This document shows, one piece after another, positions 6,290 through 25,333 of a stretch of DNA of 25,477 nt. Positions within the stretch are counted from its first letter, which is position 1. The number at the start of each line of letters is the position of its first letter. A program made the translations under genes and the position numbers. Source of the stretch: a virus. The notes under the pieces are model-generated. The model saw only the letters and a list, made by a program, of their open reading frames with translations. It had not been told where the DNA came from and searched no databases. The stretch is taken from UHGV virus genome UHGV-2038699. One strand, 5' to 3'.

Positions 6290-6580
6290 ATGGGATTTAG
6301 ATTTCGTAAAAGAATCCGGATTGCGCCCGGACTCGCGATCAACATTAGTAAAAGCGGAGTAAGCACTTCAATTGGTGGTAAAGGTTCCACCATTAACATC
6401 GGAAAAAAAGGCGTAAAGATGACAAATGGCCTTCCCGGCACGGGGCTGTCGCATACCACTAACCTTTACTCTCCCGGGAAATCGACAGAAAAAAAACAAC
6501 TTACTCATAAGCAAAAAATAATTAGAAACATCCTGTTCGTAATTATTGTGTTTATTATAATTAAAGCTCAATATTTTTGA
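6290..6580 (+). CDS. DUF4236-like small membrane protein (N-terminal MGFRFRKRIRIAPGLAINISKSGVSTSIGGKG motif, C-terminal TM helix)
   Basis: ATG at 6290 with CAGGAG RBS 6 nt upstream; opposite strand to all structural genes; its own terminator follows; AT-rich relative to flanking genes; C-terminal hydrophobic segment ILFVIIVFIIII. Confidence 0.65.
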   Translation: MGFRFRKRIRIAPGLAINISKSGVSTSIGGKGSTINIGKKGVKMTNGLPGTGLSHTTNLYSPGKSTEKKQLTHKQKIIRNILFVIIVFIIIKAQYF

Positions 6581-6585
6581 CGCAT

Positions 6586-6617
6586 GCCCGCCTATCTGGC
6601 GGGCTATTTTACTTTTC
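6586..6617 (+). terminator. Intrinsic terminator of the DUF4236-like gene
   Basis: GCCCGCC-tatct-GGCGGGC stem-loop followed by TATTTTACTTTTC, 6 nt after the stop codon. Confidence 0.65.
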
Positions 6618-6954
6618 GGCAGTCGTATGTTGCATACTGACGCGGCGAATCCATGCTGGCTTGCAGCCACTGTGCGTTGAGAATGGCTTTGCCGTTGCGC
6701 TTGATGTACTCAAGCCCAACCCAGCGGCCGGGTTGATTAGTTGCAACCGTCCATTCCATCTTGAGATTTTGATAATCTTCCTTGGCTTTCAGAAAGGTCA
6801 TTTTCTGGTTTTCTGGCTTTACACCATTAATATGCATAAAACCATCATTACCTGCGGTGAGGCGATATGGCCCGCATTGGGTATCAGCCATTGCAGTTGA
6901 AGCTCCGACCAACGAAAGAACGGCTCCGCAGATAACATTCCTAATTTTTGTCAT
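6604..6954 (-). CDS. Secreted/periplasmic protein of unknown function, 116 aa, cleavable signal peptide, two Cys
   Basis: Starting at the ATG at 6954: MTKIRNVICGAVLSLVGASTAMA|DTQCGP (n-region K/R, hydrophobic core, AMA cleavage motif). Convergent with the DUF4236-like gene. The ORF track extends it to 7014, but that would overlap the hub gene. Confidence 0.6.
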   Translation of the reverse strand: MTKIRNVICGAVLSLVGASTAMADTQCGPYRLTAGNDGFMHINGVKPENQKMTFLKAKEDYQNLKMEWTVATNQPGRWVGLEYIKRNGKAILNAQWLQASMDSPRQYATYDCRKVK

Positions 6955-18736: not shown

Positions 18737-20054
18737 TCTCGATATCCTCGTCGGTAATGGATGCCCCGATGCCGGTGACGTCAGAGTTTTCGCGCAGGTC
18801 GGTCATCGCCGCCTTACGCGTCATCAATCCGTCGCCCAGCGCGGTACTGATCGCGTTGGTGGTGTTTACGGCCACCGTTGATCGGTCAACGTCTGACATT
18901 TGCCATAGCGGGTTAAACTCAAACGTGAAATCGTCCGGCAGCGGCTTTCCGAGTTCCGAGCGGTGCATAATGTCCAGTATCCGGCGCATCGGCAGCCGTA
19001 AGCGGCGCTCCTGCAATGAGCTCACCCGGTCGTAATAGTTGGCGAGGTCTGCATCACCAGTAGAGAAGCCTTTCGGGGATTGACCGAACAGGCGTACCAG
19101 CGGGATACCAACGGCACCGCTGATCTGCTCAGCAAACTGCGAAAGAATGTCATCCAGACCACTAAAGCTGTACTGGTGGGTTTCGAACTTATCCCGCGAG
19201 TCCATGAGCGTCATACCTTCATTGCTCTGGAACTGGCGGATCAGGTCGATGTTCTTCAGCAACGCTTCGAACGCCGGGCCTCCAAGCGCGATAAGCTCGC
19301 GCAACTTCTCCACGCTATAGGTACGCAGATGCGCTTTATAGACCAGCTGCGCCGCGCCGACAGTAGCGCTATCGAACGCAGTAAGCCGATCCCAGATACG
19401 CTCTACAACCGACATTCCCCATTCGTTTTCGGTCATCTTCTGCTGGAATGGCAGCGTGACGCCATCAAAGCGGATCAGGCGGCTGTGATGGATGCGCCAG
19501 GCCGGAATGCCCGTTGCGGTGGTCACCACGTCGTAAAACTCAGGCTTGCCGAGGTCCGGCCCCATCTCTTTAATGCGGCGTGTCAGCACCGGGTTAATCA
19601 TCCAGCGGTCGAGCGGGAGAATGCCCTTAAACTTGCCCTCGCCAATGGTTTCGAGTCGCAGCGGGGTCATTGGTGCTTGCCCCTCGATCATGATGAAGCC
19701 GACCGCGCCGCCGTAGAGGCGCGACCATTTCAGCACGTCGTTCAGCGCATCCCAGATCTGCAACTCATCCAGTTGCGCTTCGAGGGTGCCACGGTCTTTG
19801 GCGTCAATCTCCGAAGTGATGCGAATGCCCTTTCGGGTCATATCGTCCGGGATAGCGTCGACCGCTTCACCGATAACCCACGAACCGCGATATGACCATT
19901 CCACCAGCATGCGGTTGCGGCTGGTGAAGTTCGCCCGGTAGGTCGATGCTGAATGCTGGTTAGGCGTCTGCATCCCAACGCGGGCGACGAAGTTCTCGTA
20001 GCCGTCAGCGGTGGCCTGTGCCGTTCGCTGAGAGGATTGCTTGTTTCGTGCCAT
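18585..20054 (-). CDS. Portal protein (DUF1073-type)
   Basis: 489 aa immediately downstream of the large terminase, with ATGA overlap. Confidence 0.7.
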   Translation of the reverse strand: MARNKQSSQRTAQATADGYENFVARVGMQTPNQHSASTYRANFTSRNRMLVEWSYRGSWVIGEAVDAIPDDMTRKGIRITSEIDAKDRGTLEAQLDELQIWDALNDVLKWSRLYGGAVGFIMIEGQAPMTPLRLETIGEGKFKGILPLDRWMINPVLTRRIKEMGPDLGKPEFYDVVTTATGIPAWRIHHSRLIRFDGVTLPFQQKMTENEWGMSVVERIWDRLTAFDSATVGAAQLVYKAHLRTYSVEKLRELIALGGPAFEALLKNIDLIRQFQSNEGMTLMDSRDKFETHQYSFSGLDDILSQFAEQISGAVGIPLVRLFGQSPKGFSTGDADLANYYDRVSSLQERRLRLPMRRILDIMHRSELGKPLPDDFTFEFNPLWQMSDVDRSTVAVNTTNAISTALGDGLMTRKAAMTDLRENSDVTGIGASITDEDIENAEDEAPPGIGELGDNPPEPPGGDPISNEPTADSAGGRGYRKWSLRWFKR

Positions 20055-21676
20055 CAGGCCTGTCTCCCTAGCAGCTCCCAGATGTTCAGGGCTGAATTCA
20101 TTGGCGCGTAGCTGATCATCACCGAGTCGGCGAGGTTCGGCGACTTGGTGCCATCAGGCTGTTTATCAACAACGATTTTCCCCACGCCATTAATGGAGTA
20201 GGTCGGCTGCGACAGCTCAATGATGAGTTTGTCTTTGCTCGCCATGGCGCTGCTGATTGAGATGATTTCGTCCGGGTTGTAGGCCATGCCCTCAACCACG
20301 GCGCGATAGGTGTTCTGGAAAAGCTTGCGTAGCCACCACCAGCTTTGGGCCTTGGCGTTGGCGAAGAAGTCCTTGTTCAGGCGTGCGGCCTGTCCGTTGT
20401 CCCCGCGCACCGCTTCATCGTCCGGATCAAATACCGCGCCGCTACCACGAAACGGTGTGGCGAGTATTGACGGTCGTCGCGCAGCGTTACGCAGTTCGTT
20501 GATGGCGCGCGCATCGCCGCGAACGCCAGCACCCAGACCGTCCTCGTCGAAGCGAAACTCTTCGAGGTTGTCCTGTTCGCAAAAGCCGAAGACCTTCTCA
20601 ACAGACTGGTAAATGTCGCTGCCAACGCCGGACCATTCACGCACGTTCTCCAGAAGGAAGCCGTGACGGGTCGAAAAGGCATTTTTGTCCCGGCCTTCGT
20701 CGGCGACGTCCATCGCGCCCAGTCGCTTGCCCGTTGGCTGAATACCAAGTTTGATATGCGCGTCGACGGCAGCCTGTACCCAGTCGGACGGGATCAGGAC
20801 GCCTTCCGCAGATGCGCTGTAGTTCAGGTCAAGTTCCTGCGCCACCACCACCGGATTGTCGATTTTCTCGCACTCCCTGCGATACCACTCTTCATCCTTG
20901 CGCGGGTCATCTCGCCAGTGGAACGTGAATACTGGTATTTTTCCGCCGTGGCGCTTCTGCGCGAACGGGTTCGCCATGCCATTAACCGAGCTCAGGTCAA
21001 TACGGCAACGGGTGGTTTGCGACAGCGCCGCATCAATCAACAGAGGACGCTGGAGGAATGCAGCTTCATCCACCAGGTAGAGCGTGGTACGGTCACCACG
21101 TCCGATATTGTCGCCAGCCTCGCCTTTGATAACCGCGCCAGTATCTGGAAACTCAACGCGCATATACGGCGCATGCTTCTTCTCGTCCCACGAACCACGA
21201 AACTCTACAGGTAGTGTTTCCACGAACTTGCGCGCCTTCCAGAACAATGCTTTCGGGTCACCGGTGCTGTCGACGTATTCCTCTTTACGGGAGCCGAAAC
21301 CGATAACCATTTCTTTGTTGAAGAGACAAAGCGAGCAGGCCAGTCCGATCGCGGTCCAACTAAGTCCCATTTCACGGGATTTTTCGGTAATACCATTCTC
21401 CCGATTGCTCCAGCGTTCCATAATCCAGTGGATCCACTCCTCCTGCTTAGGGAAGAGTAAAAACGGAATGGTCACCGGCAGGCCATAATCAATATTACGC
21501 GGGTCCGTTGTCATGCCCCAGTCGATGATGAACTGAGCCGGATTGGTTCGGTAAAACTGTTTTAGTGCAGGCAATATTTCAGGATTCTGGCGAATGCGCT
21601 GTAGGCGTTCCATCCGCCATTCAAAAACCATCTGGTAATCAGGATGTTTAAAATCGAAGGGAAATGGTAACGGCAT
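20054..21676 (-). CDS. Terminase large subunit
   Basis: 540 aa downstream of the small terminase; Walker B-like LYLVDEAAF; size and position. Confidence 0.8.
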
Positions 21677-21678
21677 AC

Positions 21679-22230
21679 TTAGCCCATCATTTTTCTATAC
21701 GCCTCTGCAGCCTGCTCCGGCGTTAAGTTGGTAATTTCTGTTATGACTGGTCCTCCATCAGCGCCAGTAACTTCATTTTTGACGTTGTCTTTAAACGCCT
21801 GAACAGAAACATGACGCCCAAGCAATTCAAGATTTTTAACCTTATCAGGCCATTTGATTTTCTTCAGAAGTGCGGCGCTATCTGCAGATACCATCTCCAC
21901 GACATCCATTCCTGATAGCGTTGTGCGCCATACCTTAGGCCAGTCTTTGATGGGTTTTAGCTCACCGTTTTGCAGGAGAATGTCAAGCACATCCATCTGG
22001 TCGATTTCAATAAGGCGATTAAGTACATATTCTGCATTAATACCAACAAGATCATTGCGTTGCGCTTTCAGTTCGGCGATTCTTAACTTGATGTCAGGTT
22101 TTGACAGGTTTTCGGATGCGGTACGGTTAGCTGTCTTTGCGCTGTACCCCGCCCGAATAGCCGCTTGCGTGGCGTTTAAATCGATGAGGTACTCGCGACA
22201 GAACATTTCTTGCTTGTCGGTGAGTGCCAT
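21679..22230 (-). CDS. Terminase small subunit (Terminase_2-like)
   Basis: N-terminus [30 protein letters not shown] is characteristic of this small terminase family; AGGT RBS. Confidence 0.8.
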
Positions 22231-22252
22231 AAATTACCTTTAAGGATTTCAC

Positions 22253-22471
22253 ATGAGTGATGAATACAAACAGAAAATCGGCATTCCAGATGACCATACA
22301 CTGGAGCTTGTCTCTTCTAACTGGAAAGGAGCTCGAAAAGGTCAGGATACCGATGAATACCTTTACCGTGAGTTGGACGCTGCGGGAAATGTAGTGGCCA
22401 CTTATGAAATTAAAGATTCAACTTCTATATATCCACCATTCGGAAGATCTATCTCTTATAAGAAGGTCTAA
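22253..22471 (+). CDS. Hypothetical 72-aa protein, opposite strand to the late operon
   Basis: ATG with AAGGA RBS 7 nt upstream; start is only 22 bp from the divergent small-terminase start; hydrophilic, slightly acidic; no family recognised. Confidence 0.45.
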   Translation: MSDEYKQKIGIPDDHTLELVSSNWKGARKGQDTDEYLYRELDAAGNVVATYEIKDSTSIYPPFGRSISYKKV

Positions 22472-22962
22472 GCAACCAACTGACCAGCATGGCATTTCCG
22501 ATTGAACATTTACACGTCCAGGATAATGCCATGTCTATTCCACAGTTCTATCGTCACCTACCGATATTGGCGTGAACTACACGCACTTGACATCAGCAGG
22601 AGCGAAGTACGCCCCCTCCCGTCTAGGTCGCCAGCGGCACAAAGCCATTAACCAGCTCAGGCTGACGTCGTGGCATCTTGCCCGTTTACTCGCCGCCGTC
22701 GTTCGTATTCAGTTTGATGATGTAGATGTCGGACATTGAGAGCCTCTTTATCCGCTTGTGGGGATATCAGTTAAGTTATCCCGTGTAGGGTATAAGCCAT
22801 TGTCGAGACCACTCATTGAATGGCCTCTGCAATAACCGATGTCTTTCCATCAGTCCGCCACCACAAAGAATCTTTTTTGCCATCAGGCAGGAGGTTCATC
22901 TTTCAGTGGCTGCCAGTGTTATTTCCCCACTTACTGGCTTGGGTTGCTTCGCGGTACTGCCG

Positions 22963-23499
22963 TTAATTAGTGAGCCCGGGGATTACGGTTTGCCCGTGCT
23001 GTTCAAGGCGTTCAATTCTCGCCAGTAGCTGAGGCTTCTTAATTTTTCCCCAGCGATTGAGCAGGCGGCCAGACATACTGGCGACATCCTTCTCTTTCAT
23101 ATACTCCAGCATTATGGCGTTGCGTTCTGCTTCATAACTTTCGCTGTACTTACGGAGTTCTGCTGACATCCAGTTAAAGGCATTTATATAGGCCTCTTTA
23201 ACAGCGTCGGCTTTTGCGCCATTAAATCCCATGACCAGCATAACGAAGCCACTAAAGTCCATGCGGTAGTAAATCTGTTTCTTGTCGAAAATCCCTAACT
23301 CATTGATTTTTTCGGCAACGCAAAAATGCGCTCTCCGGAAATCTTCAGAGCAATGACAATTTTTCAGCGCCCTCAATACGTCCGCATGACGCTTACCAAA
23401 TGCCTTTGCGATCTGGAAGGTGTCAGTTACCGGTTGACCTTCTGCTGCGGTAACTAACTGGCGAAAGTCAAAGTCATGATTCACAATTAATTCATTCAT
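22963..23499 (-). CDS. Rha-family phage regulatory protein
   Basis: N-terminal motif ...TDTFQIAKAFGKRHADVLRAL typical of the Rha domain; ATG at 23499 chosen (track ORF extends to 23568). Confidence 0.6.
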   Translation of the reverse strand: MNELIVNHDFDFRQLVTAAEGQPVTDTFQIAKAFGKRHADVLRALKNCHCSEDFRRAHFCVAEKINELGIFDKKQIYYRMDFSGFVMLVMGFNGAKADAVKEAYINAFNWMSAELRKYSESYEAERNAIMLEYMKEKDVASMSGRLLNRWGKIKKPQLLARIERLEQHGQTVIPGLTN

Positions 23500-25177: not shown

Positions 25178-25253
25178 TGGTGCTGGTTAACGGACTTGAA
25201 CCGCTACCCATTCGCTTACAAGGCGACTGCTCTACCATTGGAGCTAAACCAGC
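25178..25253 (-). tRNA. tRNA gene, anticodon UGU (Thr) by manual folding
   Basis: 76 nt with encoded CCA; 7-bp perfect acceptor stem, D-loop with GG, T-loop TTCAAGT, anticodon loop CTTGTAA. Confidence 0.6.
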
Positions 25254-25258
25254 ATGTT

Positions 25259-25333
25259 TGGCGGGACAGCGTGGGCTCGAACCACGATAAGAAGGTTAAC
25301 AGCCTTCCGTAATGACCTTTATACGACTGACCC
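25259..25333 (-). tRNA. tRNA-like gene, anticodon GUU (Asn) by manual folding; possibly degenerate
   Basis: 75 nt with CCA; T-arm CGTGG-TTCGAGC-CCACG; anticodon arm GAAGG-CTGTTAA-CCTTC; one mismatch each in acceptor and D stems. Confidence 0.45.

Follow-up and report, generated by a model that had tools for sequence, protein, structure and literature searches.

Small accessory genes of the lysis–terminase interval, known as morons after the concept of Juhala and Hendrix, are a familiar feature of phage genomes; an example is bor, found in phage lambda between lysis and terminase genes. Small phage modulators of type I restriction–modification (R-M) systems, or of abortive infection (Abi) systems linked to R-M, include lambda Ral and T4 Stp, which acts on EcoprrI/PrrC. 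T4 Dmd serves as an antitoxin substitute, and Tad2 and Acb2 are small sponge proteins. Here we analyse a virus genome of 25,477 nucleotides (nt), UHGV-2038699, referred to in its full length as the window. It is the late region of a lambdoid Escherichia coli prophage that reads on the minus strand, and it carries, on the plus strand, a small open reading frame (ORF) at 22253–22471 to which we give the working name X. X is a cargo gene of prophages, or moron, that is autonomous and moves horizontally. Its bacterial relatives lie in immune loci, and we tentatively favour the reading, which we consider a real possibility, that X is an effector-less copy of an immune sensor or regulator that modulates or blunts host nuclease or Abi systems.

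X encodes a protein of 72 amino acids (aa) and 8.2 kDa, running from an ATG start to a TAA stop. It lies head-to-head with the gene for the small terminase subunit, terS (21679–22230, minus strand; Terminase_2, Pfam E=7e-40; PHROG 51). A preliminary description of the sequence had reported a 72-aa plus-strand gene in this arrangement, and exactly this ORF and this neighbour were recovered. The two genes are separated by a divergent spacer of 22 bp (22231–22252), which from its sequence holds both ribosome-binding sites. The Shine-Dalgarno box of X, AAGGA, occupies 22242–22246, 6 nt ahead of the ATG, and that of terS, AAAGGT on the minus strand (complement of 22236–22241), lies 5 nt ahead of its ATG. 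The ribosome-binding regions had been described as overlapping; both boxes do fall inside the spacer, but they abut without overlap. The core of the spacer, ACCT(T/A)TAAGGA, is retained in every locus in which X abuts terS. In near-identical E. coli prophages the Prokaryotic Genome Annotation Pipeline (PGAP) already names the ORF hypothetical protein WP_053903632.1, and it calls X alone on the plus strand in the right half of the window, in agreement with the earlier view that X is the only plausible plus-strand gene there.

X is a genuine protein-coding gene under strong purifying selection. A word-indexed search returned 26 homologues with 58–99% identity from E. coli, Cronobacter, Yersinia and metagenomes, and an exhaustive profile search expanded the family to 115 clusters at 50% identity, of which 54 match with E up to 1e-10. 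Among phage-borne copies the proportion of differing synonymous sites (pS) is 0.70–0.93, which is saturated, against 0.05–0.21 for non-synonymous sites (pN). In the clade associated with R-M systems, the ratio of non-synonymous to synonymous substitution rates (dN/dS) is 0.02–0.2. Saturated pS with low pN in a retained frame marks X as a real gene, and conservation of the frame among related phages, on which the preliminary description had staked its prediction beforehand, is thus decisively confirmed. DNA similarity between loci either sets in at the X start codon or continues from terS, and it stops at the X stop codon. Matches of the X profile in the giant repeat proteins P0068, P0100, P0117 and P0124 were discarded as spurious hits to beta-repeats, since MucBP or other repeats are found there.

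The cargo nature of X is apparent from a comparison with the prophage of E. coli ET650 (locus L044), which has an empty site. In L044, 11 bp follow the terS ATG, after which homology resumes with window positions 22747–22963 at 96% identity; the segment 22231–22746 thus counts as inserted when compared with the ET650 prophage. Two further E. coli prophages with terS DNA approximately 96–97% identical carry unrelated plus-strand genes at the position of X, namely a 182-aa ORF without a family (L045:3072-3620) and a YodC/DUF2158 gene with a DUF6953 gene (L046:1974-2440). In a third locus, a 78-aa plus-strand ORF fills the divergent slot against terS (L006:4112-4868). These alternative cargoes begin 20–27 bp from the terS ATG. 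X is carried by 16 of 5,426 complete E. coli genomes and its flanks by approximately 2,470; E. coli 1223 and ETEC4089 are examples of X-carrying lysogens. The G+C content of X is 40.6%, compared to 46% for terS, 55% for terL and 52.3% for the window. As expected of a moron, X is present or absent at one junction and differs in base composition from its surroundings. The suggestion that X is a counter-oriented accessory gene within a late operon holds in so far as the gene is genuine and conserved and its slot is a recurrent one, with an empty site, alternative cargoes and low G+C.

To the right of X, the inserted segment contains the pseudogene of a 67-aa late-operon gene (22538–22736, minus strand) with three in-frame stops and one frameshift. 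In a tblastn comparison, its intact homologue in L058 (L058:5283-5486) matches this region at 70–78% identity in two frames with internal stops. A 55-aa plus-strand ORF at 22572–22739, called by PGAP in some genomes, is antisense to this decayed gene and is probably spurious. The right-hand junction of the slot (22747–22962) is an intergenic region downstream of a Rha-family gene; it is conserved, is present in L044, and from 22761 to 22962 is matched in most of the approximately 2,470 E. coli genomes. The junction also contains a GGGATA-N10-TATCCC hairpin (22761–22782) and a 35-aa minus-strand ORF (22776–22883), and has no Rfam match.

Across phages, the slot and the orientation of X are constant. 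In 28 of 30 IMG/VR contigs, X is on the plus strand and flanked by minus-strand terminase genes, lysis genes or both, and in 16 of these contigs it abuts a Terminase_2 terS at 21–22 nt, with TerS identities of 61–100%. The interval between lysis genes and terminase likewise holds X, on the opposite strand, in Cronobacter phage phiES15, where it is unannotated, in a Pantoea genome, in the prophage loci L006–L011 from assemblies, and in 12 metagenome loci. Over the 30 viral contigs, the 12 metagenome loci and the genome or assembly loci L006–L016, this placement and this strand recur throughout. On inspection, L058 likewise has X in the lysis–terminase slot, beside a different TerS of 328 aa. 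X thus has diverse terminases for neighbours, at least four types in all, among them Terminase_2 combined with two or more types of TerL, Nu1/GpA, and the 328-aa TerS. Related prophages carry defence genes elsewhere, for example KwaA and putAbiC.

In bacteria, homologues of X occur in immune loci of several types. The most frequent arrangement is a fixed module of a half-size HsdS (192 aa), a DUF2188 protein (81 aa), X and HsdM, followed by HsdS and HsdR, which a pattern scan located in 23 of 28 species-level genomes (L017, L019–L038, L042 and L043; an example of the module is L003:5086-7921). The module is also present in 28 of 63 metagenome loci. Its hosts comprise at least 13 named gammaproteobacterial genera, including Vibrio, Pseudoalteromonas, Marinomonas, Acinetobacter, Pseudomonas, Alteromonas, Colwellia and Nitrincola. 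The HsdM proteins are approximately 90% identical between genera, which indicates one widely transferred type I system. Variable defence genes (Bro-N, SLATT with SMODS) are sometimes inserted between hsdM, hsdS and hsdR. The DUF2188 partner is very basic, with an isoelectric point (pI) of 10.4, and matches the PADLOC candidate PDC-S16 (E about 1e-29), on which our literature search returned nothing. DUF2188 has been predicted to be defence-linked and receives passing mention (bioRxiv 10.1101/2022.04.27.489752).

X is also found with other immune genes. In Pseudidiomarina (L039), it has a type IV-like HNH gene on one side and an AbiJ-like gene on the other, and it lies upstream of a second, unrelated type I system (HsdM identity 38%). 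A C5 cytosine methylase gene is transcribed away from X in four loci (L152, L148, L080, L147), with approximately 60–90 nt between the two, and three more methylases, of the N6_N4 type, occur in other X loci. The stop codon of X overlaps the start of an AbiC-like gene of approximately 350 aa in L152 and L150, and in L080 the gene overlapping X downstream has no family match. Upstream of X in L150 are a Pycsar-like cyclase and an effector of the cyclic nucleotide monophosphate (cNMP)-TIR type.

As a fused domain, X forms the C-terminal 70 residues of PIN_8 (PF18476) proteins of approximately 381 aa, a large family found in Klebsiella, Citrobacter, Serratia, Proteus, Vibrio, Aeromonas and others; sister PIN_8 proteins end in a different C-terminus. 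These PIN_8-X proteins, which are widespread in Enterobacterales, Vibrio and Aeromonas, are encoded as single-gene units beside a type II operon of the cyclic oligonucleotide-based anti-phage signalling system (CBASS), in a Vibrio superintegron, or near an AbiJ-domain gene. PIN_8 and DUF4935 have been listed as ‘function unknown’ (PMC5499597). In K. pneumoniae, the gene next after PIN_8-X encodes a cysteine hydrolase of the Peptidase_C92 (YiiX/YebB-like) type (L047:8226-9194); such a gene also follows truncated PIN_8-X on Providencia plasmids (L090:5284-6252) and may be a conserved partner.

Two loci present X as an integron cassette, L041 and L018, the latter with an integrase and attC-like repeats. 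A small zinc-ribbon ORF with a CPYCGT motif lies directly upstream of X in L018 (L018:5900-6000) and L039 (L039:5790-5984) and is fused to X in P0084 and P0097, which suggests a two-gene unit that is sometimes fused. Plasmid-borne copies occur in a P1-like phage-plasmid and, as truncated PIN_8-X, in an island next to AbiH; we also considered the leading regions of plasmids as a location, but none of the plasmid matches lies there. A search of the literature on morons and integrons found nothing specific to X, and in the libraries and literature searched the family and its R-M, Abi and PIN_8 links appear undescribed. The association of one 70-residue domain with R-M systems, with methylases and Abi genes, with PIN_8, and with phages as an orphan is the typical pattern of a conflict component. 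This tie to R-M, Abi and nuclease loci suggests a role for X in the conflict between phage and bacterium, possibly in counter-defence rather than in classic host-benefit conversion.

The X protein is acidic (pI 5.2) and hydrophilic, as first described, with a grand average of hydropathy (GRAVY) of -0.8 and no hydrophobic segment; since it has neither signal peptide nor transmembrane segment, a role as a membrane or secreted conversion factor is ruled out, and we take it to be cytoplasmic. That its family would not be recognised also proved correct. Searches of X against Pfam, PHROGs and NCBIfam gave no matches at E up to 1 or 0.1, and PADLOC-DB 2.0 contains no model for X or for its homologues of the R-M, C5-methylase or viral clades. 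A profile search against the sequences of the PDB yielded only weak noise of the OspA beta-repeat type (E at least 0.004). No similarity to models or folds of Ral, ArdA, Ocr or KlcA/ArdB was found in Pfam, PHROG, NCBIfam, BFVD or PDB. As judged from sequence, X belongs to no described anti-restriction, defence, controller (C) protein or antitoxin family.

An AlphaFold2 model of X, computed from 25 sequences with a predicted local distance difference test (pLDDT) score of 85.2, consists of a helix (residues 2–9) and four strands (16–28, 31–41, 47–58 and 64–71). It predicts a generic cystatin/NTF2-like fold with the helix packed on a four-stranded antiparallel sheet. The invariant motifs of the family, RKGQDTD and DSTSxYPPFGR, contain the invariant residues R28, G30, D32, D34, D55, T57, S58, P61, P62, F63 and R65, which map to the β1–β2 and β3–β4 turns. 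In a meander topology both turns would lie at one end of the sheet, and the two hairpin loops plausibly form a single binding site. The motifs are unchanged across all types of partner, which argues for a common ligand rather than for partner-specific contacts.

The 22-bp spacer is too short for a promoter, so that any promoter of X must overlap the start of terS. The DNA of this region is unusual. In a comparison of eight diverged loci, terS codons 1–30 (22141–22230, minus strand) have a pS of 0.17–0.21, compared to 0.6–0.97 for the remainder of the gene. Protein conservation does not account for this, because the control codons 131–140, with a pN of only 0.01, retain a pS of 0.97; the DNA itself is constrained at the 5′ end of terS. 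The conservation, three- to four-fold above that of the remaining gene, spans E. coli, Cronobacter, Pantoea and metagenomic phages, and approximately 50 nt of the stretch have moved with X into L058, upstream of the unrelated TerS. The stretch is a candidate for an embedded plus-strand promoter, although the constraint could equally reflect a pac site, translation initiation or RNA structure, or a recombination joint. Copies of X away from terS have promoter-like boxes and canonical intrinsic terminators. In L008 these are an extended -10 (AATAAT) and a GCGCCCC...GGGGCG stem with a T-run behind it, and in L006 TATAAT and a GCCCCT...AGGGGC stem with TTTT behind it.

In the window, a hairpin begins 16 nt past the X stop codon (22488–22533, plus strand), with arms at 22488–22496 and 22525–22533 and a 28-nt loop. 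It is the sole inverted repeat of 8 nt or more within 22150–23000, where Rfam detects nothing even at E up to 1. The hairpin folds in six loci; in the terS-abutting clade its arms are CATGGCAT and ATGCCATG, L061 has the compensatory variant ATGGCAC/GTGCCAT, and U-runs follow it in L059 and L061. For every copy of X that was examined, a best-hairpin search without shuffle control found a hairpin of at least 6 bp no more than approximately 70 nt past the stop; in most copies the distance was no more than 25 nt. From these sequence features, the hairpin is a probable terminator between X and the decayed minus-strand gene that converges with it.

The membership of X in an immune-locus family, the variability of its effector partners and fusions, and the invariance of its motifs lead us to infer a small binding module, a sensor or a regulator. 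In the mechanism that we favour, the bacterial domain would be the constant partner of variable immune effectors, acting as the sensor or regulator module of nuclease or abortive-infection immunity. Phage X, placed head-to-head against terS in the lysis–terminase interval of a lambdoid E. coli prophage, would be a free copy without an effector that binds the same ligand or partner as the bacterial domain. It would thereby modulate, and most likely blunt, such host systems to the benefit of the phage or prophage, and its transcription would be independent of the Q-dependent late operon. The binding function, the counter-defence direction and the expression of X where it abuts terS are all inferred. 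A bolder form of this proposal, which we consider rather unlikely, is that X founds an undescribed sensor/regulator family. This family would couple immunity based on methylation, by type I R-M systems or C5 methylases, to suicide or nuclease effectors that can replace one another (DUF2188, AbiC-like, AbiJ-like, PIN_8), and temperate phages of Enterobacterales would have captured an effector-less copy that disarms these systems in the manner of a decoy or sponge and is driven by a promoter hidden within the first terminase codons.

Several observations weigh against a counter-defence role. X has no characterised homologue, and Foldseek searches of its generic fold against PDB and BFVD gave nothing significant (best E=0.01). 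In temperate phages, counter-defence usually falls to early genes, and lysogen expression with benefit to the host is classically signalled by a gene in the ‘bor position’ that is counter-oriented and bounded by a terminator. The stable residence of X in chromosomal R-M and Abi operons indicates that the domain serves bacterial defence, and the phage copy could do so too; an obvious partner effector is found in none of the phage X loci. A consensus promoter scan of 21600–23100 returned no sites, and a relaxed sigma-70 scan upstream of X gave only weak candidates, none of them credible (TTGTCG-15-TACCTT, and TGcCATAAA across the terS start codon, with CATAAT in L054 and L078). The earlier proposal of a promoter inside the terminase coding sequence is reasonable in view of the short spacer and the constrained terS DNA, but a convincing sigma-70 promoter was not found.

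The main rival to counter-defence, which we regard as possible if somewhat doubtful, is that X serves lysogenic conversion or defence, as a moron that the repressed prophage expresses and that guards the lysogen against other phages or mobile elements. X might then, an idea we hold with the same reserve, bind a component of the invading phage or co-operate with host effectors as its bacterial homologues would. The counter-oriented, hairpin-bounded slot between lysis genes and terminase fits such a role, as do the promoter-like boxes and canonical terminators flanking X in L006 and L008, the presence of KwaA and putAbiC elsewhere in related prophages, and the residence of bacterial homologues in R-M, Abi, CBASS and Pycsar islands and in integron cassettes. 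However, a 72-aa protein with no effector domain, partner gene or PADLOC match is unlikely to be a stand-alone system, and bacterial X is nearly always paired with or fused to an effector, while the phage copy is unpaired. It is hardly credible, by comparison, that X is a chance open frame, a non-functional remnant or an accessory of terminase packaging. X is short and tight against terS, lacks a family match and has no detectable promoter here, yet purifying selection at saturated synonymous divergence, a family of 115 clusters and a confidently predicted fold speak against a chance frame, and X is also found beside unrelated terminases, at a distance from terS, and in DNA that is not from phages. 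Selection, family size and non-phage occurrence essentially exclude both a chance ORF and a packaging accessory.

Two further explanations take their cue from particular bacterial neighbours. X could be a controller-like or Ral-like regulator of DNA-methylation-based immunity, whose phage copy eases restriction or boosts the modification of phage DNA; bacterial X would time or tune the expression or activity of a methylase, of restriction or of Abi. Consistent with this, X directly precedes hsdM in two type I systems that are unrelated to each other, it is divergent from C5 methylases in four loci, and three N6_N4 methylases occur in other X loci; the C genes of type II systems hold a position divergent from the methylase. 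Only this position recalls a C gene, since the modelled helix and four strands contain neither the helix-turn-helix of C proteins nor another DNA-binding signature. The PIN_8 fusions, integron cassettes and zinc-ribbon pairs have no adjoining methylase, and X shows no similarity to models of Ral, ArdA, Ocr or KlcA; we judge this regulator unlikely, both as the bacterial function and for the phage copy. We judge it very unlikely that X is an orphan antitoxin or immunity protein, with bacterial X neutralising the adjacent toxic DUF2188 or AbiC-like protein, or PIN_8 in cis, and the phage copy acting as an anti-addiction or anti-Abi antidote like T4 Dmd. X is indeed small and acidic next to a basic DUF2188 partner, and it is translationally coupled to AbiC-like genes and fused to a PIN nuclease. 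Its most conserved residues are nevertheless identical with every partner, which is unexpected for contacts to unrelated toxins, it has no DNA-binding autoregulatory domain, and its gene order varies, being upstream of AbiC-like genes but downstream of DUF2188. In the window no cognate toxin adjoins X, whose neighbours, terS and the minus-strand pseudogene, are not co-oriented with it. The reading of X as a free, effector-less copy of an immune sensor or regulator thus remains the one we favour.

In the remainder of the window, tRNA-Thr(TGT) and tRNA-Asn(GTT) (25178–25333, minus strand), the sole Rfam matches at gathering level, lie upstream of the holin, an arrangement shared with many lambdoid prophages, and precede the holin, lysozyme and Rz genes (24935–23718, minus strand) and the Rha-family gene (23568–22963, minus strand). 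Beyond terS, a 540-aa gene in the position of the large terminase (20054–21676, minus strand) is followed by portal, head and tail genes; it has no Pfam match at E up to 0.001, and its PGAP label varies by genome between ‘hypothetical’ and ‘TerL protein’. A second counter-oriented cargo slot (6290–6900, plus strand) lies within the tail/baseplate module and contains a 96-aa DUF4236 gene (6290–6580, Pfam E=2e-20) and, after it, a plus-strand ORF of 107 aa. Strain 1223 has a related prophage whose matching region (L088:5487-6477) bears two minus-strand genes, one for a YafO-family toxin and one hypothetical.

Taken by itself, X is an ordinary prophage moron, and its family is a modest but concrete and testable lead; the recurrent divergent cargo slot abutting terS is useful for annotating accessory genes of prophages. 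The predicted fold recalls cystatin and NTF2-like rolls, although X has four strands in 72 residues with identities of 5–15% and Foldseek E-values that are not significant, whereas cystatins wrap a five-stranded sheet round a helix, and neither the cystatin QxVxG motif nor an NTF2 pocket is evident. PDC-S16 is related to X by position, since its models match the DUF2188 gene that immediately precedes X in the type I R-M module; in contrast, PDC-S16 is a single-gene PADLOC candidate, X itself has no PADLOC model, and no DUF2188 gene accompanies X in the window. With T4 Dmd, Tad2 and Acb2, X would share, purely by analogy, the lack of an effector, being homologous to a domain that in bacteria is joined to effectors (PIN_8-X, DUF2188 with X, X with AbiC-like); its fold matches none of the three. 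The resemblance to lambda Ral and T4 Stp lies in small size and in the physical tie of the X family to type I R-M operons and Abi genes, but X has no sequence or fold similarity to them and is located in the late rather than the early region. Morons such as lambda bor resemble X in genetic arrangement: like X, they are small extra genes present or absent in relatives at one site and opposed to the late operon, with deviant base composition and a hairpin or terminator after the gene, and some X copies have promoter-like boxes. Bor is an outer-membrane lipoprotein, whereas X is predicted to be a soluble, acidic cytoplasmic protein, and in the window X adjoins terS so closely that a promoter would not fit between them, nor is one detectable. 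X belongs to an unnamed and uncharacterised protein family and is, by type, a further phage moron.

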